A stretch of DNA of 64,000 nucleotides from Acidimicrobiia bacterium (GCA_965203555.1 CBDBCY010000001.1:28427-92426); one strand, 5' to 3'. Shown: positions 44,035 to 64,000, counted from the first letter of the stretch. Notes: a model not told the origin generated them from the sequence alone. Made by a program: numbers and translations.

Positions 44035-44274
44035 TCATGCCGACACCCTCACCTCGAAGCGGGAATCCACGGAGGTTTCGAGAGTGGCTTCCAGGTTGCT
44101 GACACGATTGTCGATATAGTTTCGAAGGTTCTTCTCGACGTTCTCGACTGCCAACTCCAACGTATTGAGCCGTTGATCGAGGCGACCGAACCGTTGCTCC
44201 ATGGCATCGAACCGCTGCTGCAGTCTGGTCTCGAGATCTTCAAGGAATGTTCGGGTTTCGTCACCCACGAGCAA
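44035..44274 (-). CDS. Small coiled-coil protein
   Basis: RFDAMEQRFGRLDQRLNTLE heptads. Confidence 0.55.
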   Translation of the reverse strand: MLVGDETRTFLEDLETRLQQRFDAMEQRFGRLDQRLNTLELAVENVEKNLRNYIDNRVSNLEATLETSVDSRFEVRVSA

Positions 44275-44506
44275 CCCGAACAGAACAATGAGAAATGATG
44301 GTGGTCATAGGCGTGAAACGATAACGCCCCCATTTGCCAACTCGCGGTATCTTGGGGCCTCGCCCTGGGAGGCAGGTAGACGTGAGCTCTGTTTCGTAAT
44401 ATCCCCAGATCGAATTAAATCCCCGCCGTGCGTCCTCTCCGATTAAGGGTGCCGTGTGAGGTCAGCTAATGCCGTTGATGGTTGGATCGTAGCGGTGTGA
44501 GTATTG

Positions 44507-45250: not shown

Positions 45251-45774
45251 CCACCAGCATCAACTGGGCGATAATGCAAACACCCCCAGCCAAAACCACT
45301 ATCGGACTTCGGTATGACCGATTTCTTCAGACCCACTGGGCGTTTCATGGCACATCCAAAGGATGTATAGAGATTTTCATGTTTTAAGATAATGTGCTGT
45401 GGATGGCCGCTGCGGTATTGGTTAAGCGGCGGCCCAACCCTGTTTTCCTGCGTTGAATCAAGTCCTCAAAGGGCGTCCCGCATGTCGGTTCTCAAACCAC
45501 AGCGCACGCCACCCACAATCCTTCACACGACACCGGTCCGTCGGTAGTCTTGGCGGGATGCGGATATGGGTGGGCTCGCGACCCTTGTCAGCGGCGCCGA
45601 CGGCGTATGATCGATCCGCCGTCTGTTTGCAGCATCCGGAGTCTCTTCGCAACCAGGGTCAGCCTCTCGGGAGGCGTTTCGAGCCGCTTCGGAGGGGTTC
45701 GCTCACCCGAGAGCCGACCTCCTTCCGCTTACCGGGCTGTTGATGACGACACCACTGTCCGAGATGAACCGTCC

Positions 45775-47670: not shown

Positions 47671-47824
47671 GCGGCAGAACACAGCCTACGAGTGGCATGG
47701 CGACCAGTTTGAACCTGATACTGGACGAACCCGACCACCCCAAGGCATTCCACTGACAACCCAGCCTGGGTCCAGCACCCCATTCTCCGCCACACCGGCG
47801 ACCCGGTGTCCCTCGGGATTTGCT

Positions 47825-47830
47825 TAAAAT
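47825..47830 (+). promoter_or_regulatory. Candidate -10 box for S-layer copy A
   Basis: TAAAAT about 21 nt upstream of ATG 47852, inside a GCTTAA-N12-TTAAGC inverted repeat; not present upstream of copy B. Confidence 0.35.
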
Positions 47831-47851
47831 GGTGTGCCCTTAAGCTTACTT

Positions 47852-50031
47852 ATGTTTGCTACTTTCAGCCGTTTCCGGCGTCGGGTGGCGGTGCTGACGG
47901 TGTTGGCGATGATGGCCAGTGTGCTGGTCGCGGTGCCTGTTGCTGCTGCTGATGATCCGAAGGCGGATTACAAGGCGACTTTCGACGCCTGTGGTATGGC
48001 GCCTTCGTCGGGCTTTGAGGATGTTCCGATGAGTCATGCCAACGCTGGTGACATCGACTGCATCGCCTATTACGGGATCACCAAGGGCACCTCGGCCACT
48101 ACGTATTCGCCGTTGATGTCGGTGACCCGTGAGCACATGGCCCTGTTTTTGACCCGTTTGGCCGGCCTGGTGGGCATCGAGGTGGTGTCTGATCCGGATG
48201 ATGCTGGTTTCACCGATGTCGGTGATTTGTCGATGGAGTCGCAGACCGCGATCAATCAGTTGGCCGATCTGGGTATCACCATGGGCACCTCGGCCACCAC
48301 GTATTCGCCTGCGGACAGTGTGACTCGTGGTCAGATGGCGTTGTTTATCTCTCGGTTGATGGACAAGATGACCCCGATGATGGAGAGCAAGACCATGGTG
48401 TACGGTTACACCCCGTCGAAGGTGGTGCCGGTCGAGGACGATGATTCCACCCCCAATAAGGACGAGACCAAGAAGATCGGTTCTCCGTACACGGATTTGG
48501 GTAATGTGACCAAGACCACTTATGACGCGATCACCAACTTGTACGAGTTGGGTGTTGCTTCGGGTATCTCGGACACGGCGTATGGTCCGTCGGCTTTGAT
48601 CACTCGCGCGTCGATGGCCGGTTTCATGGCCGGTGTGTTGGATCATTCCAACGCCCGCCCGGCCGGGATCAGCATCCAGGCCGACAAGACCTGGGCTTCG
48701 GTGGCTTGAGATCCCACGATCGCGGTGTCCTATCGGGGTGACGATTTCATGCCAATGGCGGACGCGTCGATCAAGGTCTTCAACATTAGTGACAGTGAGG
48801 ATACGGATGCTGCCAAGCTCACCGAGGACAACACCTGCGATGATGGCGGATGATTGTTCTTGGAGCGACGCCGAGGATCTGACCGACATGTACGGCAACC
48901 TGTATCTCTCTGGTACCGTGGACGATGGACGGTATGAAGAACACGTACTATGCGTGGATGGGCGCCAAGAACGGCGACAAGTTCGACGCTGACACGTCCA
49001 ATCATGCGATGGTCACGTTGTCCTCGACCAAGGACGCCACCACGTTGAAGGTCACGACCGACATCAACAAGAACTCCAGTGACGGCGCCACTCCTCCTGT
49101 GGCGAACCAGGTGGACATGGACGTTGACAACAGCGTCACTGTCACGGTGCAGCTCACTGACGGCAGCGCCAATGTGGCCAAGTCGGGTGTGAAGATCACC
49201 GTGGGACTGTCGAAGAACACGTTGGTAGGTGCTGACGGCACCACCGACACGTCTGGTACCGTCGAGTTCAACAATCCCGATGCGGCGACGTTGACCACCG
49301 ACGACATGGGGATGGCCACCTACACGGTCACCGGTCCGACAGCAACCAAGAACGATGATCGGGACCGGACCGACACGGTCGACTTCACGGTCCGAAGATC
49401 TGACCGCAGGGACAAAGTGTGATCGATTGGATCGACGCCGACGAGACGTTGACGTCCGGTAAGGGATCGGTGCCCAATTATCTCATCATCAACGACGGGA
49501 AGATAAGCATCCGGGCCTCGGTCAGCTTCTACGACCAGTACGGCAACCCCTCCGGCGTCGGCCACAGGGTCGGCATCACCATCGGTGGCAATACCGCTGC
49601 GGTCAGGCCTGTCAACAGCAGGGGCATGGCCAGCCACCGAGGCTCGGTCGATGCTACGAAGAACTCTGCTATAACGGTGTCCTTCGGCAGATCTCGTGGA
49701 TAAAGACGGCGGTGCCGTTACGGGCGCTCCGGACCGTTGGCAATGAAACGGTGATGCCTGTGTCACATGCTCCGTGACGACAGCACACGCGCTGCCGCGG
49801 ATATTGATGGTGTGTTCGGCGATGACAATCGTTTCCACATCGCAGGTGACCTGTACACCTACGACTCGGACGACACCTTCTTGGACGGTGGCGAAAAGAT
49901 CACCATGGCCGAGTTCGAAACGAAGATCGGCGCCAACCTCGCAACCATAACCACTGCCGCGGAATATTCAGGTTGTGCTCTATGACGACGACGGCACCAG
50001 CATCTTCAGGGTGGTCTCAGACGCCGCCTAA
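47852..50031 (+). CDS. SLH-domain S-layer-like protein, copy A; several apparent frameshifts after ~48700 (pseudogene or consensus artefact)
   Basis: Signal peptide, SLH repeats (FEDV...GITKG...VTREHMA; GITMG...VTRGQMA); homologous pieces continue through different frames to VVLYDDDGTSIFRVVSDAA*. Confidence 0.85.
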
Positions 50032-50051
50032 ACAACCCGTTCTCTAACACA

Positions 50052-50080
50052 GTAGGAGGCCCCCACGAGGGGCCTCCTAC
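50052..50080 (+). terminator. Terminator hairpin after S-layer copy A
   Basis: GTAGGAGGCCCC-loop-GGGGCCTCCTAC. Confidence 0.85.
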
Positions 50081-50223
50081 CTATTTAAAGCTCAGACCGA
50101 CCATCCCTTGGCGTGCGAACCGTGTCCGAGGTTCCCGTGCCATGGGCCTTTGTCCCCCTTGTTGTTGAAGTTCTTCTACAGTCGTGTTATCTGTGTTAGC
50201 GACGATTTAGCGTTGTTTATGAG

Positions 50224-50253
50224 TTGACTTTGGAACGGCGGCAGGCGTATACT
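50224..50253 (+). promoter_or_regulatory. Sigma-A-like promoter
   Basis: TTGACT-N18-TATACT; a paralogous promoter lies at 52636. Confidence 0.6.
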
Positions 50254-50311
50254 GTGTCCAGAAAGGGTTTCTCGAGGGGACCAAAGCGATCCCCTTGAAG
50301 GGGGTGATGGG

Positions 50312-50755
50312 ATGTCGGCAGGAACGTCGATCGCAGAAGAAGACCGGACCGGGGCGGCCGCTACCAAAAGCGACCTTCAAGCGGTGCAGAACCACTTGGA
50401 AGGAAAGATAAGGGACGTAGACGTCAAAGTTGGGAAACTGGAGGGTAGGTTCGAGGGTCTGGAGGGTAGGTTTGAGGGTCTGGAGGGTAGGTTCGAGGGT
50501 CTGGAAGCGAAGTTCGAGGGTAGGTTCCAAGGCTTGGAGGGTAGGTTTGAGGGTCTGGAAGCGAAGTTCGAGGGTAGGTTCGAAGCTGTAGAAGGCAGGA
50601 TTGGGAGTCTGGAAGGCAAGGTCGGGGATCTGACCGGTGAGGTAAGAGAACTGGGTAAACAGATCACCGGTTTACGAGTGTCGATGGCGTGGACCACTGT
50701 GGGTGTGGCCGCCGGCCTGGCAAGTCTGATTACGGTTTTCCAGTTCCTTTCGTAG
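50312..50755 (+). CDS. CCDC90/DUF1640-like (mempromCC) coiled-coil protein with C-terminal TM
   Basis: ATKSDL beta-layer motif, LEGRFEG heptads, terminal hydrophobic helix. Confidence 0.7.
   Translation: MSAGTSIAEEDRTGAAATKSDLQAVQNHLEGKIRDVDVKVGKLEGRFEGLEGRFEGLEGRFEGLEAKFEGRFQGLEGRFEGLEAKFEGRFEAVEGRIGSLEGKVGDLTGEVRELGKQITGLRVSMAWTTVGVAAGLASLITVFQFLS
50438..50587 (+). repeat. In-frame 21-bp tandem repeat (CTGGAGGGTAGGTTYGAGGGT) with 33-bp variants
   Basis: Direct reading. Confidence 0.9.
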
Positions 50756-50769
50756 ACCGCATACCGCCG

Positions 50770-50991
50770 CACTTTCCCCATGACGGGGAACAACGGCGGT
50801 CCCAATCTCATGGTCATCCCGCCTAACGAACTTGACGTGACTGCCCTTTTTGGCTGACCTCCGCAAACCCCGCTCTACGCAGTTCGCCGGCGACCTGCCG
50901 GCAGGGAAGGAGCCTAAGCCGCTCCAACTTTCACGCGGAGGTCTTGGATTCCTGGCAGCACACTTCGGCCGGGGCGGTTCGAAGTGGAGTT
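50770..50991 (-). pseudogene. Decayed hicBA copy (homologous to ~60150..60370)
   Basis: GSHVKFV...TAVVPRH; nucleotide colinearity with the intact pair. Confidence 0.8.
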
Positions 50992-51164
50992 CTCGGAGAA
51001 TTGAAGGCTGGCAGTCAATACCCTGTCATGTGAACCAGTTAGGTGGCCAGCCTGGCAACCGATACCGACAACCCCCTAGGGGCGGCCTCACCCGTCGCCG
51101 CTGCTCGACAGCTTCAGCCAGTCCAGTTGGCGTTCGGGTGTGACAGTCGCTCTGTTGATCGACC

Positions 51165-52163
51165 GTGGAAAGGAAGACCATGAGCAGCACTGCGCCGGAT
51201 CATGTCCCGACAAACATTCCCCCTTCCGATATCCGTCTTCCGGTCAAGGACTGGGAGCGGGTCCAGGAAGCGGCTCGAAAAAGCCGATCTCACAACACCA
51301 AAATCGCCTATCGGACCTACCTGTCGGCGTGGACCGCCCACGCCCGGAAACGAGGGGTGGAGGCCAAACCGGCCCATCCCGCCGCGGTAGCGGAATGGCT
51401 CACCAGCCTGGCTGACGAGGGCAAGTCGATCAGCACACTCCAAGTGGCCAGAGCCGCAGTCGCGGCAGCTCACCGTGAGGAAGGCCTGGATGATCCAACC
51501 ACCACCGAATTGGTGAGACGCGTGCTGTCGGGCCTGACACGGGAAGCCGCCAAACAGGGACGTCGACCCTCACAGGTGAAAGGACTGACCCGCGGGGACC
51601 TCCAGCGGATCCTGGCCCACTTTACCCGCCCCAACGGTGTCCCGCAGAGCCGGATCCTGCTCAGGGACCTGGCGCTGGTCCAGGTAATGCGCGACGGATT
51701 GCTGCGCCGCAGCGAGGCCGCCAACTTGATGTGGGGAGACGTTATCAGTATGGAAGACGGGTCGGGCCGGCTGACCATCCGTCACAGCAAGACCGACCCG
51801 GAGGGAAAGGGCGCGGTGATGTATCTCGCTCCGTCGACCATGGCAGCGCTCAACCGGATACGGCCCGAAGACGCCCAGCCCCATCAGGCGGTGTTCGGGG
51901 TCAGCGGCCCGCATCTGTCCACTCGAATCAAGGTACTCGCCGAAAGAGCCGGCCTGGGTTCGGGGTACAGCGGCCACAGTTGCCGAATAGGGATGGCCCA
52001 GGACCTGGCTGCCCACGGCGCCACGCTGGCGCAGTTAATGACCGCCGGTCGTTGGACCAACCCGACCATGCCCGCACTGTACACCCGCAACCAGACGGCA
52101 GCCAACAATGCAGTAGCACAGTACTACCAGCAACTCACTCTGCTAGACCGACACCCGAGCTAG
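51165..52163 (+). CDS. Cre-like tyrosine recombinase/integrase
   Basis: SAM-like N domain; catalytic R (LLRRSE), K (SKTD), HxxR (GHSCR), W (GRW), Y (PALYTR). Confidence 0.92.
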   Translation: MERKTMSSTAPDHVPTNIPPSDIRLPVKDWERVQEAARKSRSHNTKIAYRTYLSAWTAHARKRGVEAKPAHPAAVAEWLTSLADEGKSISTLQVARAAVAAAHREEGLDDPTTTELVRRVLSGLTREAAKQGRRPSQVKGLTRGDLQRILAHFTRPNGVPQSRILLRDLALVQVMRDGLLRRSEAANLMWGDVISMEDGSGRLTIRHSKTDPEGKGAVMYLAPSTMAALNRIRPEDAQPHQAVFGVSGPHLSTRIKVLAERAGLGSGYSGHSCRIGMAQDLAAHGATLAQLMTAGRWTNPTMPALYTRNQTAANNAVAQYYQQLTLLDRHPS

Positions 52164-52429
52164 GCCGATCGCGAACCTTGAGTTCCCACAGACGATCACC
52201 AGAGGTTGCCGTACCCTATTGAGGGGGACGACAACATGGCAGCGTCAGCCACGCCGGGGTTTACAGTGCGGTCTGGTGAGAAGAGCGACTGTCTCAGTAT
52301 CGGATCCTGCCGTGCAGGCCGAGGAATGCACCTTGACCGATACCTACCAGCCAGCAGAGTTTCATTCGCGACTTTGATCGACTGAGGTGGTGTGGCAACG
52401 CTGCGGCGACCACGGCATCCTTCCGTAAG

Positions 52430-52605
52430 AACGCACTCGACCCGGATCCCTGAACCCGGTTCGGAGTGGCATCCTACGCGCTTGGACCTATCCACGAACA
52501 CGATCAACTCACCCTGGTGGGATGGATTCGGTTTGTCGCCTTTGACAGCCAACATTCTGGCCGCTGGTGCCTCCCGCTCTGCACAACTCGCTACTCGGAA
52601 TTTAC
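52430..52605 (-). pseudogene. Relic of the RelE/BrnT-like toxin family of 21441..21707
   Basis: ELIVFVDRSKRVGCHSEPG vs PLVVFVDRFENMAFHSEPG. Confidence 0.45.
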
Positions 52606-52635
52606 GGACGATATGTTGCTTTCGGCGCTGAACGC

Positions 52636-52664
52636 TTGACTTTGGACGATGGTGAGGGTATTCT
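52636..52664 (+). promoter_or_regulatory. Sigma-A-like promoter
   Basis: TTGACT-N17-TATTCT. Confidence 0.6.
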
Positions 52665-52718
52665 TTGATATGGTAAGGTCCTTAGGGACGGGATGTCACC
52701 TATGAATAGGGGTTTTCG

Positions 52719-53021
52719 ATGGCGTTGGGTGTTAGGGCAGAAGAGGGAGATTGGGCAGGAAGTCCAGCTACCAAGGCTGATCTGACCTTGGTGCGAGTTG
52801 ATCTGATGGGAATGGTCAAGGATGTTGAGGGCAAGGTCAAGGATGTTGAGGGCAAGATCAAGGATGTGGAAGGCAAGATCAAGGATGTGGAGGGAATCGT
52901 CAAGGACTTCAGGGTTGAAATGACCAGCGAGATCGCCAAGCTGCGGGTGTCGATGGCTTGGATGACGGTGGGTGTGGTGATGGGCCTGGGAGGTTTGATA
53001 GCCCTTTTCGAGTTCCTTTAG
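52719..53021 (+). CDS. CCDC90/DUF1640-like coiled-coil TM protein, paralog of 50312..50755
   Basis: ATKADL, four KDVEG heptads (21-bp repeat 52815..52898), LRVSMAW.TVGV TM. Confidence 0.7.
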   Translation: MALGVRAEEGDWAGSPATKADLTLVRVDLMGMVKDVEGKVKDVEGKIKDVEGKIKDVEGIVKDFRVEMTSEIAKLRVSMAWMTVGVVMGLGGLIALFEFL

Positions 53022-53160
53022 CAATCACAAAACCCAACTCGGGAGGTCGCCCACGGCGTTGGCCGGGGCGACGGTGGGATGACTACATGTGTTTTGACGA
53101 ATCCCCTCGGCGTCTGTCGCCTTCAGGTTTCAGCGATGTCTCGACTCCGGGTTCAAAAGG

Positions 53161-53190
53161 GTAGGAGGCCCCTTTGGGGGGGCCTCCTAC
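53161..53190 (-). terminator. Terminator hairpin after S-layer copy B
   Basis: Same stem as 50052, followed by CCTTTT on the - strand. Confidence 0.85.
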
Positions 53191-53213
53191 TGGTTGTTGG
53201 GGGGTGGGTTGGT

Positions 53214-55424
53214 TTACGCGACGGATGCGGCGGTTTCCACCTCGAAGATGCTTTGGCCGTCGTCGTCGTAGAGCACCACTTGCACGGTGGCTTCGGTCTT
53301 TGTTTGACCGGTGGTTGCCGTGAGTCCCACGCCGATCAGTTCCTCGAACTTGGCCATGTCGACCACCTTGCCCGCGTTGAGGAACTTGTCGTTCGAGTCG
53401 TAGGTGTACAGGTTACCGCCGATCCGGAACCGGTTGTCGTCGCCGTACACAGCGTTGAGTGTGGCGGCGTCCGCGGTGGTGTCGTCGCCGGCATGGTTGA
53501 CAGGCGTCACCATCACATCGGCGGCCTCCGGAGCGCCGGTAACGGGCGTGGTGCCGTCGGCTTCGTTGATAGTTCCGTAGTCGATGGTGATGTCGGTGCC
53601 CGCCGCGGTGGGTGTCACCGAGGTGCGGTAGCTGGCCATGCCCCGGCTGTTGATCACCCTGGTCGAAGCGGTACCCACCGGAGTGGTACCGGCCGAACCG
53701 ATGGTGATATCGATCTTGTTACCGGCGCCGATCGGGTTGCCGTACTGGTCATAGACGCTCACCGTGGCCCGGATGCTCACCTTGCCACCGTCGATGATCA
53801 CATACTCGGGCGCGTCTCCCATAGCAGAAGCGCCGTCCGTTCCCACGATGGTCGGGTCGGCGTCGCTCCACACGATCTCATACGGCTCGGTCTCGCCAAC
53901 GGTCGCGTCCTCGACCGTGCCATCCCCGTCCACGTCGGACGTGAAGGTCAGCGCGTCGGTCCTACCCGTGTCGGTATCGCCCTTGGTGGACTTGGGACCG
54001 GTCACCGTGTAGGTGGCCATACCCATGTCATCGGTGGTCAACGTCGCAATGTTGGGATTCACGAACTCGTCCGAATCGTCGGAACCGTCGTCCTTGTTCA
54101 GACCAACCTGGATCTTCACACCCGACTTGGCAACCTTCTTGCCGTCACCGTCCGCAAGTTGCACCGTCACCGTGACGCTGTTGTCAGCGTCCAGATCCAC
54201 CGTGTTGTCATTGTTGGACATCTTGCTGATGTCAGAAGAAGCCATCAACTGGGTGGCGTCCTTGGTCGAGGACAACGTGACCATCGCATGATCGGACGTA
54301 TCAGCATCGAACTCGTCGCCGTTCTTGGCGCCCATCCACGCATAATACGTGTTCTTCATACCGTCCTGTACGTCACCGGTCTCATACAGGTTGCCGTACA
54401 TATCAGTCAGAGCCTCGGCGTCGCTCCAAGAACAATCATCCGCCATCATGCAGGTGCCGTCCTCCTTGAGCGCGTCCCCGTCGATGTCATCAATGTTGAA
54501 CACCTTGATCGACTTATCCGCCATCGGCATGAAATCATCACCCCGATACGAAACCGCGATCGTGGTCTCAAACATATCGAAATCCCAGGTCTTGGCCGCC
54601 TGGATACTGATCCCCGCCGGGCGGGCGTTGGAATGATCCAACACACCAGCCATGAAACCGGCCATCGACGCACGAGTGATCAAAGCCGACGGACCATACG
54701 CCGTGTCCGAGATACCCGAAGCAACACCCAACTCATAGAGATTGGTGATCGCGTCATAAGTGGTCTTGGTCACATTCCCCAAATCCGTATAAGGCGAACC
54801 GATCTTCTTCGTCTCATCCGCATCAGTATCCGGATCGTCATCGACCGCCATCACCTTCGACGGGATGTAACCGTACACCTTGGTCTTGCTCTCCATCATC
54901 GGCGTCATCTTGTCCATCAACCGAGAGATAAACAACGCCATCTGACCACGAGTCACACTGTCCGCAGGCGAATAAGTGGTCGCAGAAGTACCCATCGTGA
55001 TACCCAGATCGGCCAACTGATTGATCGCGGTCTGCGACTCAGCAGACAAATCACCGACATCGGTGAAACCAGCATCATCCGGATCGGACACCACGTCGAT
55101 ACCCACCAGGCCGGCCAAACGGGTCAAAAACAGGGCCATGTGCTCACGGGTCACCGACATCAACGGCGAATACGTAGTCGCAGACGTGCCCTTGGTGATC
55201 CCGTAATAAGCGATACAGTCGATGTCACCAGCGTTGGCATGACTCATCGGAACATCCTCAAAGCCCGACGAAGGCGCCATACCACAGGCGTCGAAAGTCG
55301 CCTTGTAATCCGCCTTCGGATCATCAGCAGCAGCAACAGGCACCGCGACCAGCACACTGGCCATCAAAGCAAGCACCGAAAGCACCGCTACATGACGCCG
55401 AAAACGGCTAAAAGTAGCAAACAT
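53214..55424 (-). CDS. SLH-domain S-layer-like protein, copy B (736 aa, intact)
   Basis: Signal peptide, SLH repeats, acidic D/T/G-rich beta-type C-terminal region. Confidence 0.88.
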   Translation of the reverse strand: MFATFSRFRRHVAVLSVLALMASVLVAVPVAAADDPKADYKATFDACGMAPSSGFEDVPMSHANAGDIDCIAYYGITKGTSATTYSPLMSVTREHMALFLTRLAGLVGIDVVSDPDDAGFTDVGDLSAESQTAINQLADLGITMGTSATTYSPADSVTRGQMALFISRLMDKMTPMMESKTKVYGYIPSKVMAVDDDPDTDADETKKIGSPYTDLGNVTKTTYDAITNLYELGVASGISDTAYGPSALITRASMAGFMAGVLDHSNARPAGISIQAAKTWDFDMFETTIAVSYRGDDFMPMADKSIKVFNIDDIDGDALKEDGTCMMADDCSWSDAEALTDMYGNLYETGDVQDGMKNTYYAWMGAKNGDEFDADTSDHAMVTLSSTKDATQLMASSDISKMSNNDNTVDLDADNSVTVTVQLADGDGKKVAKSGVKIQVGLNKDDGSDDSDEFVNPNIATLTTDDMGMATYTVTGPKSTKGDTDTGRTDALTFTSDVDGDGTVEDATVGETEPYEIVWSDADPTIVGTDGASAMGDAPEYVIIDGGKVSIRATVSVYDQYGNPIGAGNKIDITIGSAGTTPVGTASTRVINSRGMASYRTSVTPTAAGTDITIDYGTINEADGTTPVTGAPEAADVMVTPVNHAGDDTTADAATLNAVYGDDNRFRIGGNLYTYDSNDKFLNAGKVVDMAKFEELIGVGLTATTGQTKTEATVQVVLYDDDGQSIFEVETAASVA

Positions 55425-55655
55425 AAGTAAGCATATCGGACGGGCGTTTTCTTCGCTATTTTGTTCCTCGGCCGCCAGCAGACGCCGGGGATCCGATCTT
55501 CGTCCCTCGAGAGCCGACGATCCCACCGACTCTGCTCTCATCAGTAGCCTGGTGCTTGTGGCTGTGAAAGGACCTCGAAAAGGGCTTGTCAGGCTCCCCC
55601 AGCCCGTTGCATGAGGGTAGGTTCTCGTTAAACTAGGGGACGGAGGAAACACATT

Positions 55656-56141
55656 ATGGCTGGCGAGTTGACCTTTCCTGTCCGTCCTGCATCCGAGATC
55701 CCTACCAGGCGGGAGCCTTCCTTTCGGGTGCGTCGCCGCGCAGTCGCCGAGTTGCCGCCCCACATGGTGGGCCGGACTCTGTTGGAGGCTTATCGCACAC
55801 CACTCTTGCAGTTCATAGCCGACTGGAACCGTTCACCTGCCAAAGCGGACATGATCGAAAAAGTCCCTTCCTATGAAGGTTCCGACCTTTATCTGCTGCC
55901 TTCTGTCGCGGCGGTGGTCCATGCTCTGGTCGACCGGCATCACCTGGCTGTTCCGGACTGGGTGTGGGAACATGAAGCCCCCGAGGATTGGGTCCTTTTC
56001 TGTGAGCCCGGGGAGTCCGGATCCTTTTTCTGGCGGAGGGGAATGGAGAACGCTCCTTCTACCTGCCGTCACCATCGGGTCTTTTTCCATTACAGGCTGT
56101 TGGATAAAGGGACACCCGATTGGTGGCTGCCATGGACCTGA
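55656..56141 (+). CDS. Hypothetical protein, possibly the antitoxin-like partner of a truncated downstream gene (MDLTPKRIVELFLEVDAEL at 56132)
   Basis: GGAGG RBS; AAVVHAL...VPDWV...RHHRVF. Confidence 0.55.
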   Translation: MAGELTFPVRPASEIPTRREPSFRVRRRAVAELPPHMVGRTLLEAYRTPLLQFIADWNRSPAKADMIEKVPSYEGSDLYLLPSVAAVVHALVDRHHLAVPDWVWEHEAPEDWVLFCEPGESGSFFWRRGMENAPSTCRHHRVFFHYRLLDKGTPDWWLPWT

Positions 56142-56799
56142 CCCCAAAGCGTATCGTTGAACTGTTTCTGGAAGTGGACGCAGAGCTATACGTTCTCACG
56201 GACAGGCATCAGGGGACTGTCCTGATTTTTAGGTGAAACGAGCGGGATAAGTCAGATGATTTTCCCAACTATCTGAGCAATCCGACTGGCCACCATCACC
56301 CACCCAGTGAGCCTGCTCTCCTTCGGTCCGTTCCGCAAAGTCCCTCGGAAGAGGGCCACGCACGGATTGCACTCAAGACCGATATAAACAACTCTGACGA
56401 TTTCTACTTCCGGGTTTGCTCTGCTGTGACTGCATCACCGGTCAGCCCCGGGCGGTAAGGATGCTATTTGAGCAACGGAACTTCCAGCATGGCGGTTACC
56501 CCTTCAACGTACTGCGTGCTCTTGCCCACCAACTGGCCCTTTCCCCTGATACCGACGTAGGCCACCCCTCCCGTTTCCAGCAGCAGGTTCGCTCCCGTAT
56601 CCGTGTAGGACAGCACCATCATAAGTCCCAGGCCGCGAATCGGGTCGACCTCGGACGTTGTTGGCGATCACTGAAATTCCCCAGTCTCGATCACTGAAAT
56701 TCCCCACCCTCTGGGAGCAAATACCCGTTGTTGGGTAGGGCTCTCTCCAAGCTAGGCGATTGTCATGTCACTAGCTGTGGAGAGGAGCCCTATCCCCTT

Positions 56800-58098
56800 A
56801 TGTTGGTACTGGAGGAGTGCGTGGAAGTTCATGCTTTGAGGAGGCGGGGGTGGTCGATCTCGGCTATTGCTCGTCATTTGGGAAGAGACCGGAAAACGAT
56901 ACGGGCGTATCTGTCGGACGGGCGAGCCCCGGGCGAGCGTGCCCGGGCAGAGACGGATCTGTTTGATGAGTTCGAGGCGTATGTGCGGCAGCGGTTGTCT
57001 GATGATCCGCATGTGTGGGGGTCGGCGCTGTTCGACGAGGTGGTGGCTTTGGGCTATGAGCAGAGCTATGTGACGTTTGTGCGGAAGGTCCGTCTTCGGG
57101 GCCTGCGGCCGTTGTGTGGCGCCTGTGCGGGTACCAGGGGCCGGGCCACGGCGATTATTGATCATCCACCGGGTGAGGAGTGCCAGTGGGACTGGGTGGA
57201 ACTACGTGACGCCCCGTGGGGAGCCACCGCTCATGTGCTGGTGGGAGTGCTGTCGCACTCGGGCCGGTTTCGGGCGTGGATCACGTCCCGCCAGGACCAA
57301 CCCCATTTGGTGGAGGGTCTCGACCAGGTGTTGAGACGACTGGAGGGTACCCCGCGGCGGTGGAGGGTGGATCGGATGGCTACCGTGGTGGCGGCCAGTG
57401 GTCGTATCCAGCCGTCGTTCGTTGGGGTAGCCAAACACTACGGGGTGGCTGTCGATCCGTGCCCACCGCGCCGTCCCCAACGGAAAGGCGTGGTGGAAAA
57501 GGCCATCCACTATGTCTCTCAGCGGTGGTGGCGCACCGCAGCGGTGACCAGCATCGCCGAAGCACAGCACAGCCTGGACAGCTTCTGCCAGACCGTGGGC
57601 GATCTTCGCCCACGGCGGGAGAGCACGGTGGGCGAGCTGGCCGATAACGAGCCTCTCCTCGAGCTTCCTGCGGTGCCTTACCCGGCAGAAGGGATCCTGG
57701 AGCGCAGGGTGACATCCAACGGGCTGGTATCGGTACGCGGTAACCGATACTCGGTGCCACCAGGGGTGATAGGAACCCAGGTCACCGTCCGTTGGAGGCT
57801 CGGTGACCCCACCATCAGCATGTTCTCGGCCAGTGGCCGGCTGGTCGCTACCCACCAGCAGGCACCCCGCGGTATGGGACGGGTGGTTCGGCTACCCGAG
57901 CACACCGCTGCTTTGGAGAACGTGGTCCTGGCCGAGTTCACCACCAAACCACCGTGCAAACCCAAACCCAACCGTCCGCCATCGGACGCGGCTTTGGCTA
58001 TCGCCGCCGGTATCGGAGACCTGTACACAGAAACGGTGATCGATCTGGAGGTGTACCAGCGGCACATCGACCAACAAAACCGAAAAGCGGGTCTGTGA
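56800..58098 (+). CDS. istA: IS21 transposase
   Basis: HTH GWSISAIARHLG, PGEECQWDW, VDRM, KGVVEK, NRYSVP. Confidence 0.93.
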   Translation: MLVLEECVEVHALRRRGWSISAIARHLGRDRKTIRAYLSDGRAPGERARAETDLFDEFEAYVRQRLSDDPHVWGSALFDEVVALGYEQSYVTFVRKVRLRGLRPLCGACAGTRGRATAIIDHPPGEECQWDWVELRDAPWGATAHVLVGVLSHSGRFRAWITSRQDQPHLVEGLDQVLRRLEGTPRRWRVDRMATVVAASGRIQPSFVGVAKHYGVAVDPCPPRRPQRKGVVEKAIHYVSQRWWRTAAVTSIAEAQHSLDSFCQTVGDLRPRRESTVGELADNEPLLELPAVPYPAEGILERRVTSNGLVSVRGNRYSVPPGVIGTQVTVRWRLGDPTISMFSASGRLVATHQQAPRGMGRVVRLPEHTAALENVVLAEFTTKPPCKPKPNRPPSDAALAIAAGIGDLYTETVIDLEVYQRHIDQQNRKAGL

Positions 58099-58880
58099 TG
58101 AACCAATCGGTGTACCAACAACTACGAGGCCATCTGGCCTACCTCAACCTACCCGCCGCGGCCGAGGCGCTCCCCACCCACCTCGAACAGGCACGAACCA
58201 ACCGTGAAAGCCACACCGAGTTCCTTGAAGGTCTACTTCGAGTAGAAGTAGAGACCACCGAACAGCGGCGATGGGAAACCCGTCTCAAACTGGCCAACTT
58301 CCCCACCCGCTGGAAACTGGAAGACTTCGACTTCACCGCCCAACCCAGCATCGACGAGAAAATGGTACGAGAACTCGCCACCGGCGCCTACCTGACCGAC
58401 GCCACCAACGTTTTGTTCATCGGACCACCCGGCGTGGGCAAAACCATGCTGGCGGTCATCCTGGGCCGCGCCGCGGTAGACACCGGACACAAGGTGTACT
58501 ACACCACCGCAGCCGACCTGGCGGCGCGGTGCCGCAAAGCCGCCCTACAAGGAAGATGGGCCCAAACGTTGCGGTTCTTCAACACCCCCAAAGTGTTGAT
58601 CATCGACGAACTGGGCTATCTGCCCATGCCGGCAGAAGACGCCGCCACCCTGTTCCAGGTCATCTCCCGACGGTACGGAAAAGGGTCGATCATTCTCACC
58701 ACCAACCTCGGTGTCGCCTCGTGGGGAGAGATCTTCTCCGACCACACCATCGCCGCCGCCATGCTCGACCGACTGCTCCACAAAAGCGTGGTGTTCACCA
58801 TCACCGGCGACAGCTACCGCCTCAGAAGCTACCAAGCCCAAGCCCGAAAACACCGACCGAAAGGAGACCTGCTAGCCTAA
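58095..58880 (+). CDS. istB: IS21 helper ATPase
   Basis: GPPGVGKT, LIIDELGY, LDRLLH, GDSYR. Confidence 0.95.
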   Translation: MMNQSVYQQLRGHLAYLNLPAAAEALPTHLEQARTNRESHTEFLEGLLRVEVETTEQRRWETRLKLANFPTRWKLEDFDFTAQPSIDEKMVRELATGAYLTDATNVLFIGPPGVGKTMLAVILGRAAVDTGHKVYYTTAADLAARCRKAALQGRWAQTLRFFNTPKVLIIDELGYLPMPAEDAATLFQVISRRYGKGSIILTTNLGVASWGEIFSDHTIAAAMLDRLLHKSVVFTITGDSYRLRSYQAQARKHRPKGDLLA

Positions 58881-59185
58881 AACCACCCAACCCAGGGTGG
58901 GGAATTTCGATGATCGACTCTGGGGACTTTCGATGATCGTCATCAACGTGACACCCCCTGAAAACGCTGCCGCTACCGCCAAACCCTCAACAATGTCGGG
59001 ATACGCCTTGCGCATGCTGGCATGTATTCATACCCCGCTCGCTGGTGCTCCAACCGTTGGTGAACCACGGTGACGGCTGTAATAACAGCTACGGATGGCA
59101 GCGCAGAAGTGGCCGGTGCCGCCGGCAGCCCCAACTTCGAAGCGGTATATGGTGACGACAACCGGCTTACTACCATCGGCCCGGG

Positions 59186-59812
59186 ATGAGTCTTCTCTAC
59201 GACACCCGGGTGGTGGCTGCGAAACCGCGTGGCCAGTATCGAATATGGGTGCGCTTTGCAGATGGTTCCGAGGGAGAAACAGACCTGTCCTCCCTCATGG
59301 ACGATCCGTCCCAAGAGGAGTGGTTCGAGCCATGGCGCGACCCGGATTTTTTTGCTGATATCTCTGTCGGGGGTCTGGGAGTGGTTTGGGGAGACCCGAA
59401 CGATTGTCAAAGCCCGTACGACGCTGTGTCGCTGGCGGGTGACGCGCTGTACAGCCATGTCAAGGGACTGACATCGGTTGAGATGCACCCCGAGATGCAC
59501 GCCACGCGGGTGGTGAAAGCAGAACCGCTTCGCAAATACCGGGTGTGGATACGTTTCGCTGACGGGACCGAAGGTATAGCCGATCTCGGGGACTTCGCCG
59601 GTAGAGGTGTTTTCTCCGAGTGGGACGGTCCCGGTGGGTGGGAAGGGATGCGCGTCGTCCATGAAACGTTGGAGTGGGGATCGGGCGATCTTACGGACGT
59701 GGTGGACTTTTGTCCTGAAATGCTGTACTCGAGGGTATCGGGTATCGGCAGGGCGGATATGGAGACGCCTGACTTTGCAAGGGCCGCCTTGGAGAGACTC
59801 CAATCCCGCTGA
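59186..59812 (+). CDS. Tandem DUF2442-domain protein
   Basis: Two copies of TRVV.A.P...YR.W.RFADG.EG..DL. Confidence 0.8.
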   Translation: MSLLYDTRVVAAKPRGQYRIWVRFADGSEGETDLSSLMDDPSQEEWFEPWRDPDFFADISVGGLGVVWGDPNDCQSPYDAVSLAGDALYSHVKGLTSVEMHPEMHATRVVKAEPLRKYRVWIRFADGTEGIADLGDFAGRGVFSEWDGPGGWEGMRVVHETLEWGSGDLTDVVDFCPEMLYSRVSGIGRADMETPDFARAALERLQSR

Positions 59813-60092
59813 ATGCCTGAAATCTGTCGGATGGGTTCTCTGTCATTCAGATGTACCACGACGACCATCCATGGCCCCATATTCACGTCCGATATCCCGG
59901 GTCGCCTCCGCTGGTAGTCAGGATCCACAGTCTCGAAACCAAAGGAGCCGACCGGTTTACGGCTGGAGAAATCGGGAGAGTCTGAAATGGGTCAGATTGC
60001 GAGAAACGGAGTTGCTCTCCGCCTGGGAAAGGGCAGAACGGGGCGAGCACCCCGGCAGAATCACTCCCCTTAGCGAACCTACAGTTGGTTGA
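59813..60092 (+). pseudogene. Frameshifted DUF4160-family gene
   Basis: MPEICR..IQMYHDDHPWPHIHVRY, then W...ELLSAWERA..GE.PGRITPL in other frames. Confidence 0.7.
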
Positions 60093-60303
60093 ACTGTTCG
60101 ACGCTCAGTCCCGCTTGGCGCAAAATGCTGTTCAGTGTTCCGACTCGCACTTCCCTGTGGCGCGGAACGATGGCGGTGCGTATCTCATTGCCCTCCCGGT
60201 TCACGAACTTGACGTGACTACCCCTTTGGCTGATCTCGGCAAACCCCGCTCTGCGCAGTTTGCGCGCGACCTGCCTATAAGGGAGAGGACTAAGCCGCTC
60301 CAA
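60079..60303 (-). CDS. hicA: HicA toxin
   Basis: GF.EISQRGSHVKF, VPRH, GTLNSILRQAG. Confidence 0.92.
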   Translation of the reverse strand: MERLSPLPYRQVARKLRRAGFAEISQRGSHVKFVNREGNEIRTAIVPRHREVRVGTLNSILRQAGLSVEQFNQL

Positions 60304-60499
60304 CCTTCACTCGGAGGTTATGGATCTCCGGCAACACAGTCGGCCGGGGCGGCTCGAAGTGGAGCTCCAATGCCTCAGCAAGGTTGTTTAGAGCACCATC
60401 CGGAGACTCGCCTTGGCTCGCCACGTCAACCTCCAAGGCTTGCGCTATGAACCATCCGTCCTCTGGCCAGACAACCGCTGTGAATTGTTGCTCCTGCAT
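60290..60499 (-). CDS. hicB: HicB antitoxin (short form)
   Basis: EDGWFIA...VASQGES.D.AL.NL.EALEL. Confidence 0.9.
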   Translation of the reverse strand: MQEQQFTAVVWPEDGWFIAQALEVDVASQGESPDGALNNLAEALELHFEPPRPTVLPEIHNLRVKVGAA

Positions 60500-61249
60500 A
60501 AAGGCATCCCCAAGCTCTCCGAGAGTTTTAGGCTAGCAGCCCAAAGCCCCGCCATGCTCTTGGGATATACGCCTTCGGACAGGAATTGTTGAGCCTAACC
60601 GCAATCCCTGCGGCTGTCCTGCATCAAGAAGCCAACATGATCTTCAAACATCCAAGCGCCTCCCTTCTCTCCCGACGAAGCAGTGGAAGTCGTCGTCGCG
60701 GGAGTGCGGAGCGTACGGTTTGTCTTCATGACGGACAGGGATCTGGGTCTCCTCTAGCCTTCCTTAGGAGGCGGGGGAAAGACCTGGTCAAGTGGCTGCC
60801 GCCCGTAGAATTCCGCCGAGAGGCAAGTAAGCATATCGGGAGCGGCAATTATTGCTAACGTCCGCTACACGTTTGTCCTTGTCAGGACAAAACAGGGGCC
60901 AGATCTCAAGCGCACCGGAGAGGGCCAATCAGCGGTGACGCGGGGGAGCCGACCGACCTTCGTGATCGGCGCCTCCCATGTCGTGTACCCAACGGGGCGA
61001 TGGACGCCGGCGCTCCCTCTGCGGGACCATCCCCCGAAGCCCGCGCCCGCTCGGTCCGCGCTACTCGTTCACATGCCAAGCTGTGGGAACCAGGGTTGAC
61101 TTGCTAATTTGGGGAAAATGGGTACTTCCCGACCCGTTTTCCCAGCCCAAGGTTGATGCCGAGTCGTTGACGATCAGCAAGTCTTGGGTGGTGAAGACCG
61201 GATGGTGGTTGCCTGCCCATCTTCCTGCCGGGGTGGAAACTCCCGGCTT

Positions 61250-61697
61250 CGGTAACATCACGATCTGTGAATGTGAGATCAGCACTGAAGACGGTCTGCT
61301 CGAAAAAGAAGGTTGTGCTGTTACCGTGGAGAATCTCGTCATTGCGCTGGACTGCGACGAATGCGAAGCCTTCACCGAGAATGACACCAGACCGGACATT
61401 ATCTCAGTTCGAGAGTGCGAGCACCGTTATCAATGGCTCATCATAGAGATGAAGAGCACCATGCGACCACGGGCAGCCGACCAGGCCCGGGCAGCACTTG
61501 AACGACTGGGATGCGATCCCATGTTCGGGGTTGATTTGGACGACGCCCACGTCATATTCGTTATCAAGAACAGACGCAAGGCGGACAATACCCTGATGCG
61601 GGAGATCGGCGCCATCGAAGTCGGCCAATGGCGTGTCGTGCCCCGCCTTCACAAGTCGGGAAGTATCGTCCGATGCAAGCAGGGCCCACATTCCTAG
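61250..61697 (+). CDS. Hypothetical PD-(D/E)xK-like protein (start uncertain)
   Basis: RPDII...LIIEMKS...A.DQ. Confidence 0.45.
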
Positions 61698-61832
61698 ATC
61701 GCGGTTACCGCGCCGGGGGCGGATGTCCGCGTCCCGACCGGGAAACGGTGGGATTGGTTCCATGTTGTGATGAAATCCATCCGAGTCTGTGACTTTCAGG
61801 TTTCAGCGATGTCTCGACTCGGGTTTAAAAGG

Positions 61833-61862
61833 GTAGGAGGCCCCTTTGGGGGGGCCTCCTAC
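61833..61862 (-). terminator. Terminator hairpin after S-layer copy C
   Basis: Identical to 53161..53190; flanking 3' region shared with copy B (about 53122..53213 vs 61795..61885). Confidence 0.85.
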
Positions 61863-61885
61863 TGGTTGTTGGGGGGTGGGTTGGT

Positions 61886-64000
61886 TTACGCGACGGATGC
61901 GGGGGTTTCCACCTCGAAGATGCTTTGGCCGTCGTCGTCGTAGAGCACCACTTGCACGGTGGCTTCGGTCTTTGTTTCACCTTCGCCTGCCGTGAGTCCC
62001 ACGCCGATCAGTTCCTCGAACTTGGCCATGTCGACCACCTTGCCAGCGTTGAGGAACTTGTCGTTCGAGTCGTAGGTGTACAGGTCACCGCCGATCCGGA
62101 ACCGGTTGTCGTCGCCGTACACCGCGTCGAGTACGACGCCGTCCGCGGTGCTGTCATCGTCCGCGTGGTTGACAGGCGTCACGGTCACATCGGCGGCGTC
62201 GGGAGCGCCGGAGACGGCCGTGCCGGCGGCGTCGTTGATCGCTCCGTAGTCGATGGTGATGTCGTCGCCTGCCGTGGTGGGTGTCACCGAGGCACGGTGG
62301 CTGGCCATGCCCCTGCTGTTGATCACCCTGGTCGAAGCGGTACCCGCCGGAGTGGTACCGGCCGAACCGATAGTGATATCGATCCGGTTACCGGCGCCGA
62401 TCGGGTTGCCGTACTGGTCGTAGACGCTTACCGTGGCCCGGATGCTCACCTTGCCACCGTCGATGATCACATACTTGGGTGCCGATCCCATAGCAGACGC
62501 ACCATCCGCGCCCACGATCGTCGGGTCGGCGTCGCTCCACACAATCTCATAGACCTCGGTCTCGCCACTGGCGGCGTCACCGGTCGTGCCGTTCCCGTCC
62601 ACGTCGGACGTGAAGGTCAGCTCGTCGGTGCGGCCCGTGTCGGTGTTGCCCTTGGTGGACTTGGGACCGGTCACCGTGTAGGTGGCCATACCCATGTCAT
62701 CGGTGGTCAACGTCGCGATGTTGGGATTCACGAACTCGTCCGTGTTGTCGGAATCGTCGTCCTTGTTCAGACCAACCTGGATCTTCACACCCGACTTGGC
62801 GACCTTCTTGCCGTCACCGTCCGCAAGTTGCACCGTCACCGTGACGCTGTTGTCAGCGTCCAGGTCCACCGTGTTATCACCGTCGGAGTTCTTGCTGATG
62901 TCAGACGAAGCCACCAACTGGGTGGCGTCCTTGGTCGAGGACAACGTGACCATCGCATGATCGGACGTATCAGCATCGAACTTGTCGCCGTTCTTAGCGC
63001 CCATCCACGCATAGTACGTGTTCTTCATACCGTCCATCACGTCACCGGTCTCATACAGGTTGCCGTGCATGTCGGTCAGAGCCTCGGCATCGCTCCAAGA
63101 ACAATCATCCGCCATCTCGCAGGTGCCGTCCTCGGTGAGCGCGTCCCCGGTGATATCAGCAATGTTGAACACCTTGATCGACTTATCCGCCATCGGCATG
63201 AAATCATCACTCCGATAGGAAACCGCGATCGTGGTCTCGAACGTGTCGAAGTCCCAGGTCTTGGCCGCCTGGATACTGATCCCGGCCGGGCGGGCGTTGG
63301 AATGATCCAACACACCAGCCATGAAACCGGCCATCGACGCACGAGTGATCAAAGCCGACGGACCATAAGCCGTGTCCGAGATACCCGAAGCAACACCCAA
63401 CTCGTACAAGTTGGTGATCGCGTCATAAGTGGTCTTGGTCACATTCCCCAAATCCGTGTAAGGAGAACCGATCTTCTTCGTCTCATCCATATCGGCAGTG
63501 GAATCATCGTCCTCTACCGGTACCACCTTGGACGGGGTATACCCGTACGGCGTCTTCCCGTCCATCATCGGGGTCATCTTGTCCATCAACCGAGAGATGA
63601 ACAACGCCATCTGACCACGAGTCACACTGTCCGCAGGCGAATACGTCGTAGCAGAAGTACCCATCGTGATACCCAGATCAGCCAACTGATTGATCGCGGT
63701 CTGCGACTCCATCGACAAGTCACCGACATCGGTGAAACCAGCATCATCCGGATCCGACACCACATCGATGCCCACCAGACCGGCCAAACGGGTCAAAAAC
63801 AGGGCCATGTGCTCACGGGTCACCGACATCAACGGCGAATACGTAGTAGCCGAGGTGCCCTTGGTGATCCCGTAGTAGGCGATGCAGTCGATATCACCAG
63901 CGTTGGCATGACTCATCGGAACATCCTCAAAGCCCGACGAAGGCGCCGTACCGCAGGCGTCGAAAGTCGCCTTGTAATCCGCCTTCGGATCATCAGCAGC
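61886..64000 (-). CDS. SLH-domain S-layer-like protein, copy C (5' end lies beyond the window)
   Basis: Open frame to the window edge; colinear with copy B. Confidence 0.88.
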   Translation of the reverse strand, partial: AADDPKADYKATFDACGTAPSSGFEDVPMSHANAGDIDCIAYYGITKGTSATTYSPLMSVTREHMALFLTRLAGLVGIDVVSDPDDAGFTDVGDLSMESQTAINQLADLGITMGTSATTYSPADSVTRGQMALFISRLMDKMTPMMDGKTPYGYTPSKVVPVEDDDSTADMDETKKIGSPYTDLGNVTKTTYDAITNLYELGVASGISDTAYGPSALITRASMAGFMAGVLDHSNARPAGISIQAAKTWDFDTFETTIAVSYRSDDFMPMADKSIKVFNIADITGDALTEDGTCEMADDCSWSDAEALTDMHGNLYETGDVMDGMKNTYYAWMGAKNGDKFDADTSDHAMVTLSSTKDATQLVASSDISKNSDGDNTVDLDADNSVTVTVQLADGDGKKVAKSGVKIQVGLNKDDDSDNTDEFVNPNIATLTTDDMGMATYTVTGPKSTKGNTDTGRTDELTFTSDVDGNGTTGDAASGETEVYEIVWSDADPTIVGADGASAMGSAPKYVIIDGGKVSIRATVSVYDQYGNPIGAGNRIDITIGSAGTTPAGTASTRVINSRGMASHRASVTPTTAGDDITIDYGAINDAAGTAVSGAPDAADVTVTPVNHADDDSTADGVVLDAVYGDDNRFRIGGDLYTYDSNDKFLNAGKVVDMAKFEELIGVGLTAGEGETKTEATVQVVLYDDDGQSIFEVETPASVA

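Follow-up and report, generated by a model that had tools for sequence, protein, structure and literature searches.

The question raised by the DNA described here is whether an uncultured bacterium of the Acidimicrobiia may exchange the genes for its surface proteins by DNA inversion. The window, meaning the whole stretch analysed, is 64,000 nt long (G000:C1:28427-92426, where G000 is the genome carrying it and C1 a contig, whose end is also the end of the window). It contains three paralogous genes, A, B and C, for surface proteins with S-layer homology (SLH) repeats, and a tyrosine recombinase gene, located between A and B, which converge. An initial annotation had read this arrangement as a locus for S-layer antigenic variation, where crossovers between inverted 5' blocks would put different C-terminal halves behind a promoter of A. 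The core of that idea, a cassette inversion associated with a recombinase, is still the best reading, and one that extends to a whole genus; the exchange unit, however, would be a whole open reading frame (ORF), taken from a site at the start codon, and not a C-terminal half. Whether the locus works in the manner of the vpma/vsp loci of Mycoplasma, with whole ORFs moved to a single expression site and A, B and C as silent cassettes, is in our judgement evenly balanced, on the basis of the sequence comparisons reported below.

The SLH genes of the window

The three SLH paralogs were found by the ORF list, a repeat search and a Pfam scan, at the places given by the initial annotation. Gene B (53214..55424, minus strand) is intact, and its 736 amino acids (aa) comprise a signal peptide, an SLH trimer and a chain of beta-sandwich domains. 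Gene C (61886..>64000, minus strand) is open for 704 codons up to the end of contig C1, by which it is cut: the first ~31 codons, the start-codon site and the upstream flank are absent from the assembly. Gene A (47852..50034, plus strand), recognized by the ORF list, Pfam, tblastn and alignment, features a signal peptide and three SLH repeats. A forms inverted repeats, far beyond chance, with both B (47841-48442 / 54834-55435, 602 nt, 94% identity) and C (47945-48393 / 63552-64000, 449 nt, 96%); between B and C, which form a direct repeat, identity is 90-97% from end to end. All three genes end, as had been noted, in a common terminator, a 12-bp G+C hairpin (-26.3 to -26.6 kcal/mol, z -5.0 to -7.4); that of A is located at 50052..50080, on the plus strand (-26.3 kcal/mol, z -5.0).

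The C-terminal half of A had been described as clearly different. A three-way alignment shows instead that homology with B and C extends over the whole of A, which is nonetheless broken. A local -1/+1 shift leads to an in-frame TGA at 48707-48709, the ORF ending after 285 codons; further frame-changing indels are found at about 48839 (+1) and 48920 (+4), at 49390-49415 (-23 and -8), and at 49737 and 49771 (+1 each). In tblastn searches A appears as five pieces, whose start coordinates are spread over all three reading frames. As the indels include events of 4, 8 and 23 nt, and the adjoining unique DNA shows 0-1 differences from independent short-read contigs, they are not homopolymer errors: gene A is a decayed pseudogene. 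Over its 3' half, contigs of run X5 differ from the window by 29 letters and 5 gaps in 918 nt, and those of run X6, over 610 nt, by 14 letters and 4 gaps; the allele of A may thus be a different one there.

A palindrome over the start codon

The identity between A and B starts abruptly, as stated by the initial annotation, although at 11 and not at 8 nt before the ATG: at 47841/55435 a TA is followed by one mismatch, and then by GCTTACTT. This abrupt start is a general property of the family. Six genomes gave 43 SLH N-terminal hits. In an alignment of their 5' ends, a ~22-bp imperfect palindrome, overlapping the start codon of the genes called here type-1 from -11 to about +11, was present in 34 of the hits; the other 9 comprise copies truncated or cut by a contig end, and members of a second SLH subfamily, found in tandem behind type-1 genes. 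In the 34 hits the information content is 0.0-0.6 bit at positions -40 to -13, 0.8 at -12 and 1.6-2.0 at -11 and -10. Conservation then remains high through the ATG and two more codons, save for the variable position -9, and third positions are near-invariant up to +8. Upstream of -11, flanks are unrelated.

The family consensus is TA-N-GTAAACTT-ATG-TTT-GCT, which in most species contains the dyad AGTAAAC-TTAT-GTTTACT; in G000 the element reads TA-N-GCTTACTT-ATG-TTTGCTAC, with the dyad GCTTAC-TTAT-GTTTGC. Two candidate recombination sites are thus found in the window, where the A/B identity starts: that of A, TAAGCTTACTT-ATG-TTTGCTACT, at 47841..47863 on the plus strand, and that of B, inverted relative to it, at 55413..55435 on the minus strand. 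A regular expression derived for the element matched 63 sites in the fetched regions of 10 genomes, on both strands in every multi-copy cluster; four of them are from G000 (A, B, C2:151338 and C2:158412, the last two located on another contig, C2). A stricter pattern matched 10 of the 17 genomes of the genus, and its reversed control none.

Leader flanks

A Shine-Dalgarno-like motif is present at -24 to -8 in 12 of the 63 sites. Eleven of the 12 also feature, at -114 to -128, the motif GTAAC-N17-GTCT, which is found in none of the remaining 51 flanks. These 11 flanks share a conserved leader, where GTAAC-N17-GTCT is followed by a GGAGG Shine-Dalgarno sequence; it may be aligned over ~130 nt in seven flanks from six genomes, while other flanks are kept only between close relatives. 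We take the motif to resemble, in both spacing and sequence, the promoters recognized by extracytoplasmic function (ECF) sigma factors. The leader occurs at most once in a cluster, and is missing from two of the cluster parts fetched (G010a, G008b). The exception is G005, a genome in which the recombinase was not found: its two tandem type-1 genes both carry the leader.

The only leader flank of G000 is located on C2, at C2:151338, ahead of an intact gene of 756 aa. The leader is absent from A, B and C2:158412; the last is frameshifted after ~266 codons and is, like A, a broken copy. A promoter of A had been suggested by the -10-like TAAAAT, found upstream of A only. The sequence is indeed there, at 47825-47830, but a sigma-70 scan found no site upstream of A or B, nor in the C2 leader flank, and the 3 sites detected in 47500-56300 compare with 3.0 expected. 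Being a pseudogene with neither Shine-Dalgarno sequence nor conserved leader, A would not be the expression site. This role would rather belong to the flank at C2:151338, as the only active promoter, on a contig which may be a neighbouring piece of the same cluster.

Two observations are added on these contigs and flanks. The start of C2 overlaps the end of contig C4 by 839 nt (96%). In G013 (C1:1549838-1554406, L019) the gene at the leader flank of a second cluster is interrupted by a copy of an insertion sequence of the IS21 family.

Possible traces of exchange at the element

Recent duplications end at the element. In G006 one contig carries two copies, ~58 kb from each other, of a 4,569-bp segment made of two convergent genes with an inverted site at either end. 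Their identity is 100%, they are oppositely oriented, and their four outside flanks are unrelated. A second segment of the same two-site design, 11,690 bp long, also occurs twice (99.9%). All four segment ends (eight of eight ends of high-scoring segment pairs) fall within 0-3 nt of the -11 base, and outside flanks are again unrelated. The paralogs of this genome share no more than 62-85% identity in their 5' blocks, and match perfectly for 20-83 nt counted from the ATG, so that the exchange points must lie in the short common core.

Two older pairs of duplicates in G003 (93.6% and 95.2% identical) start 0-1 nt from a site; in G005, where the recombinase was not found, the nearer end of the tandem duplicate is separated from a site by 90 nt. 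Flanks and coding regions were also compared by aligned profiles, as the copies differ by indels. The 128-nt upstream flank of B (55425..55552, minus strand) is 96.9% identical to that of its paralog at C2:158412(-), while the identity of the coding regions falls to ~50%. For the leader genes of G000 and G003, the best match of the 3' region in G008 and G013 is found at a site other than the orthologous leader flank.

Where contig C5 of G006 ends (G006:C5:1266678-1296000, L062 and L063), an inverted repeat of at least 9.4 kb (98.7%), containing nuoC/nuoD-like, KduI/IolB-family and Schlafen AlbA_2 genes, encloses the second of the two 11.7-kb copies. Two haplotypes with the segment in opposite orientations may be represented at this contig end, or else the inverted duplication may be real.

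The recombinase

The recombinase gene (51165..52163, plus strand) is present in a single copy in G000. As proposed by the initial annotation, it encodes an intact tyrosine recombinase: both the catalytic domain, PF00589 (47.6 bits), and the N-terminal SAM-like domain, PF02899 (31.2 bits), score above cut-off. Its closest relative of solved structure is Cre (E 4.8e-17), with an alignment composed of two stretches of low identity. The motifs LLRRSE/LLRAAE, GHSCRIG/GHSARVG, GRW/GGW and LY/NY match those of Cre, and surround residues which we take to be the catalytic Arg, His-x-x-Arg, Trp and Tyr. The protein is not a XerC/D, as the NCBIfam Xer models score far below their cut-offs. Of 8,000 candidate database proteins scored, 852 match at E <= 1e-10; among the matches listed, the few source names given are generic (such as "tyrosine-type recombinase/integrase" or "site-specific recombinase XerD").

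A tree of 18 full-length copies features two groups, with the window copy placed among others 80-86% identical to it. In the second clade (support 99/95), 7 of the 8 members are divergent from an SLH gene and located 136-224 nt from its site. Altogether, 12 of the 18 copies are located on the flank side of a site, at a distance of 136-518 nt, a position which is consistent with an action of these enzymes on the palindrome.

Distribution of the family

The initial annotation suggested that more cassettes might exist beyond the window. More paralogs do exist in G000, on other contigs, so that the locus is not confined to the window: four are on C2 (151338-153605, 153699-155813, 158412-156572 and 141768-144002), and others are on C4. 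Type-1 copies are five (A, B, C, C2:151338 and C2:158412), plus more distant paralogs. Both 1.5-kb ends of a further contig, C3 (20.7 kb), match C4:2095529-2116800 at 78-90%: C3 thus looks like a variant copy, and the bin would contain more than one haplotype.

In other genomes the family may be larger. Up to 17-21 matches are found in G003 and G013, clustered within 20-70 kb; in genomes assembled in a single or a few contigs, clusters contain up to ~11 copies bearing the palindrome, in both orientations, with recombinase copies inside, and such copies reach about 13 per genome. The SLH N-terminal module is present in 16 of 16 other genomes of the genus, against 1 of 24 genomes belonging to the same family and order but to other genera; for the recombinase, the corresponding numbers are 14 of 16 and 0 of 24. 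As far as these genomes indicate, the locus is a multi-copy one, specific to one genus of Acidimicrobiia. These uncultured bacteria are apparently associated with sponges and corals: public runs labelled as sponge and coral metagenomes hold 0.32-0.39 of the sequence words of the window.

Proposed mechanism

The ~22-bp palindrome would be the target of the Cre-like recombinases, which would exchange DNA between two inverted sites. A whole promoter-less ORF would be brought in this way behind the single expression flank, while the previous one would be parked; double exchanges would occasionally duplicate two-site segments. In the window, the 7.6 kb from A to B (47841-55435), carrying the recombinase gene, would be an invertible two-site segment, and A, decayed, and B and C, both intact as far as assembled, would be parked cassettes of an expression flank on contig C2 (C2:151338). 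A more specific version is put forward tentatively, its chances being somewhat below even: a shufflon-like system, in which Cre-family recombinases, acting on a lox-like start-codon palindrome, would move entire S-layer-type ORFs to one site with an ECF-type promoter, and duplicate two-site cassettes by double crossover, as a natural form of cassette exchange.

Reads, relatives and alternative explanations

Several observations weigh against such an exchange system. The order of the locus in related genomes, suggested by the initial annotation as a check, speaks for stability: in G013b and G010a, whose flanks are 87-97% identical, four of four orthologous flanks are in the same order and orientation. 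At two of the four the coding regions are clearly orthologous, with 97% and 90% identity, respectively, in the 3' part; a third pair, where one copy is truncated, matches weakly (74%); in the fourth, G013b_20096/G010a_15891, similarity ends at about +830, which is the end of the SLH block and not the site. As these genomes are collinear, with coding regions kept in part, shuffling is not fast on that time-scale. Two of two metagenome contigs carrying the leader, from another species, have the same coding start, for ~240 nt after the ATG, as judged by eye, and are thus uninformative about switching.

Switching was also sought in Logan short-read contigs of X5, X6, X1 and X2, aligned to 45000-64000 at 93% likeness. 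In none of them is a flank followed by an alternative coding region, and the repeats are fragmented; the unique parts of the window are matched with 0-1 differences by X5 and X6. Three joints stand apart. One contig of X5, with depth 7.8 and 32 letters on its short side, joins 47841 to 63833 on the opposite strand, and 47841 is exactly the -11 base of the site of A. In X1, one contig joins 50144 to 59029 on the opposite strand, with 36 letters, and a further joint leads from 53081 to 61823, with 64 letters between.

Other difficulties concern the silence of the cassettes, and the parts assigned to the recombinase and to the site. Of the 51 ORFs without leader, 46 are at least 560 aa long, i.e. 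most of the supposedly silent copies are intact. A Shine-Dalgarno-like motif precedes the first ATG or GTG in 14% of the long ORFs of G000, against a background of 9%, a rough figure obtained from crude ORFs, many of them spurious; use of the motif in this genome is thus weak, and its lack alone is no proof of silence. The recombinase gene of the window lies within the A-B segment, at a distance of 3.3 kb from each of its sites, and the copy of G007 is far from the SLH cluster of that genome, with no relevant inverted repeats found in its surroundings. The duplicates of G006, known from a metagenome, might have arisen during assembly; finally, their end points could equally be those of homologous recombination restricted to the short, perfectly identical core.

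The main alternative is a static multigene family, in which each paralog has its own promoter, the element from -11 to +11 plays a translational or regulatory role, and the recombinases bring about only rare rearrangements and duplications in evolution, or belong to unrelated mobile DNA of a variable island, with no programmed switching. We regard it as unlikely, with an appreciable chance of being true. The collinearity of G013b and G010a, the intactness of most copies without leader and the weak use of Shine-Dalgarno sequences are what it would predict, and the aligned contigs feature no clear variant junctions. The presence of IS21 copies in the island also fits with it. B and C are under purifying selection: this is expected if they are used in turn, silent copies sometimes decaying, but is equally compatible with independent expression. 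A static family, however, leaves unexplained why leaders are limited to one per cluster or less, being found at 11 of the 63 sites and none of the 51 others; why both copies carry one in the genome lacking the recombinase; why noncoding and synonymous positions of the palindrome are near-invariant among paralogs with synonymous divergence (dS) up to 1.0; and why recent duplicates end 0-3 nt from the element.

Non-reciprocal gene conversion, similar to that of pilE/pilS, would copy silent genes into the expression site through the homology of the core and of the SLH block. Near-identical coding regions at leader and silent flanks (G003 4167 vs 35539, 93.6%) and the 99.9-100% identity of the G006 segment copies agree with it. 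We consider it very improbable: what was duplicated in G006 is each time an entire two-site segment, found in a new context, and no gene was replaced at the leader flank; moreover, gene conversion neither needs nor explains recombinase genes clustered beside the sites.

The exchange favoured by the initial annotation, in which the 0.8-kb inverted 5' blocks would be the crossover substrate, corresponds to RecA-type homologous recombination around a promoter of A, with the tyrosine recombinase incidental or accessory. Long inverted blocks are there (602 nt at 94%, 449 nt at 96%), and the similarity between G013b_20096 and G010a_15891 ends where the SLH block does. A, however, is a pseudogene with neither leader nor Shine-Dalgarno sequence, and has no promoter-like site upstream. 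Nor are the blocks homogenised: between B and C, dS is 0.25 in the SLH part, with a ratio of nonsynonymous to synonymous divergence (dN/dS) of 0.14, and 0.16 in the rest (dN/dS 0.41), while in the 5' block of A and B it is 0.22 (dN/dS 0.16). The dS of the blocks, 0.22-0.25, is not below the 0.16 of the 3' half, and the 0.85 kb at the 5' end are conserved because the SLH module is, by purifying selection, and not by recent recombination. In G006, moreover, blocks are 62-85% identical, yet the duplicated segments reach the -11 base. It is very improbable that this process underlies the locus.

Last, that cassettes and duplicates are artefacts of repeats mis-assembled in metagenome bins, as the end of the window inside C and the palindromic X-segment-X' structure (98.7%) with nuoC/nuoD-like genes at the end of G006:C5, which may join two haplotypes, could suggest, is hardly credible, since the same architecture is found in the single-contig genomes G002, G003 and G007 and recurs in independent short-read assemblies and metagenome contigs, and since the unique parts of the window are matched by X5 and X6 with 0-1 differences.

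Architecture of the proteins

Three SLH stretches are recognized by Pfam after a signal peptide, the latter judged by eye. A structure model of B was built from 43 family members (mean predicted local distance difference test score, pLDDT, 85). In the model, the SLH trimer is found at residues 53-267, which superpose on that of Bacillus anthracis Sap (3pyw; Z 19.7, root-mean-square deviation (rmsd) 2.5, 178 residues aligned), and also on the form of it bound to pyruvylated cell-wall polymer (6bt4, Z 18.8). Residues 270-736 are predicted to form a chain of beta-sandwich domains, with generic matches only (Z 9-11, rmsd 10-17), which name no function. By their domain architecture, the members of the family are surface proteins anchored through SLH repeats and built like S-layer proteins. 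A pyruvyl transferase family of the CsaB type, expected for the SLH ligand, is represented in G000 at C4:508834-509724 (PF04230, 110.9 bits, over cut-off); as it is also present in 9 of 14 control genomes, the support it gives is weak.

Other features of the window

Between A and B are found, in this order, cc1, a conserved 225-nt element, the recombinase gene, cc2 and the terminator of B. cc1 (50312..50755, plus strand) encodes a small coiled-coil protein, and would be a passenger of the A-B segment; cc2 (52719..53021, plus strand) is its paralog, with 31% identity. Both feature 21-nt tandem repeats, coding for heptads such as LEGRFEG and VEGKIKD, and a hydrophobic C-terminus. A sigma-70-like match is found ahead of each (50224-50253, 10/12, for cc1; 52636-52664, 9/12, for cc2), and similar genes adjoin recombinase copies in G013 and G004.

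The 225-nt element, detected by repeat search and alignment at 50768..50992 (plus strand), upstream of the recombinase gene, has a second copy in the window (60151..60349, plus strand, 80% identical). Seven copies from five genomes show a mean column identity of 87%, and the element is usually located a few hundred nt upstream of an SLH gene without leader. The ORF on its plus strand has no Pfam match, and the copy at 50768 contains a 1-nt insertion. A search of Rfam in 44000-64000, which includes the element, gave no match at E <= 0.1.

Between B and C are located orf55656, an IS21-family element, a DUF2442 gene, the second copy of the 225-nt element and orf60978. The first (55656..56141, plus strand) has no family match, and is a conserved neighbour of SLH genes, with a 93% identical copy in the cluster of G003. 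The insertion sequence (56655..58949, plus strand) is composed of istA and istB within 56-nt terminal inverted repeats; G000 contains eight full copies (92.5-100% protein identity). A contig of X1 joins 56654 to 58946, showing that this insertion is absent there. The gene orf60978 (60978-61697, 239 aa, no family match) holds, beside C, the position that the recombinase and cc2 hold beside B. Upstream of A, an ORF of 706 aa (45550-47670) has no family match and a 54% identical paralog at C1:4212-6158.

Significance and comparison with known systems

A literature search found no paper on S-layers of sponge Acidimicrobiia, and no cassette system of this kind among reports on invertible or phase-variable SLH proteins; for S-layer antigenic variation by tyrosine-recombinase inversion, only a paper on CwpV of C. 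difficile was found. A survey of gene-altering programmed inversions (PMC9881135) reports statistical enrichment only, and the available part of it describes no such locus, site or lineage, although its supplements may list individual cases. If the proposed exchange is real, this would be, as far as the literature searched indicates, the first case of coat variation of S-layer type driven by a site-specific recombinase in Actinobacteriota, and also the first such system in an apparently animal-associated uncultured lineage. A symbiont would own a repertoire of alternative cell coats, of possible use against phages or in host recognition, and surface variation in sponge symbionts could be tested with existing long-read data. 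The design would be a compact one, the recombination site lying within the start-codon region, so that silent cassettes carry no leader; it would also provide a small natural recombinase/site pair related to Cre. Should switching not be real, the family would still be an example of a recombinase-linked site shaping the growth of a surface-protein family.

In the sap locus of Campylobacter fetus and in slpA/slpB of Lactobacillus acidophilus, the analogues named by the initial annotation, alternative S-layer genes with conserved 5' ends are inverted behind one promoter. Long conserved 5' regions serve there for homologous recombination, which in C. fetus depends largely on RecA. To our knowledge, these systems have no dedicated Cre-like recombinase. 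Alternative S-layer-type genes with conserved 5' ends are common to them and to the family described here. In contrast, the 5' block is not homogenised here, and breakpoints coincide with a short palindrome.

The shufflon of R64, where Rci swaps C-terminal segments of pilV, is similar in its inverted short sites, in the segments bounded by them, in its tyrosine recombinase and in the conservation found mainly on one side of the site; in the present case, however, whole ORFs would be swapped at the start codon. With Cre/loxP of phage P1 the locus shares a related recombinase, a short palindrome with an asymmetric centre and the cassette-like behaviour suggested for two-site segments. It differs in its arms of 6-7 bp around a 4-nt centre, instead of a 13-8-13 arrangement, and in having no phage context.

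The closest parallel is with vpma of Mycoplasma agalactiae and vsp of M. bovis (recombinases Xer1/Mbr). In these, according to the available part of the source (PMC2268961), silent ORFs are linked by site-specific inversion to one unique promoter, and the recombination site is proposed to lie directly upstream of each start codon. Like them, as they appear in that part of the source, the present family is a cluster of surface-protein genes with a tyrosine recombinase gene in the locus, and with a short conserved 5' sequence at every type-1 gene, in both orientations. The same part of the source (PMC2268961) marks the differences: there the proteins are lipoproteins of a wall-less bacterium, here they are SLH-anchored, of S-layer type and actinobacterial; there the site extends from -1 to -72, here ~22 bp lie over the start codon; there the recombinase is a Xer, here it is closest to Cre, with several copies per cluster. 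Switching and its dependence on the recombinase have been demonstrated for vpma/vsp, while for the SLH genes described here both are proposed from sequence.

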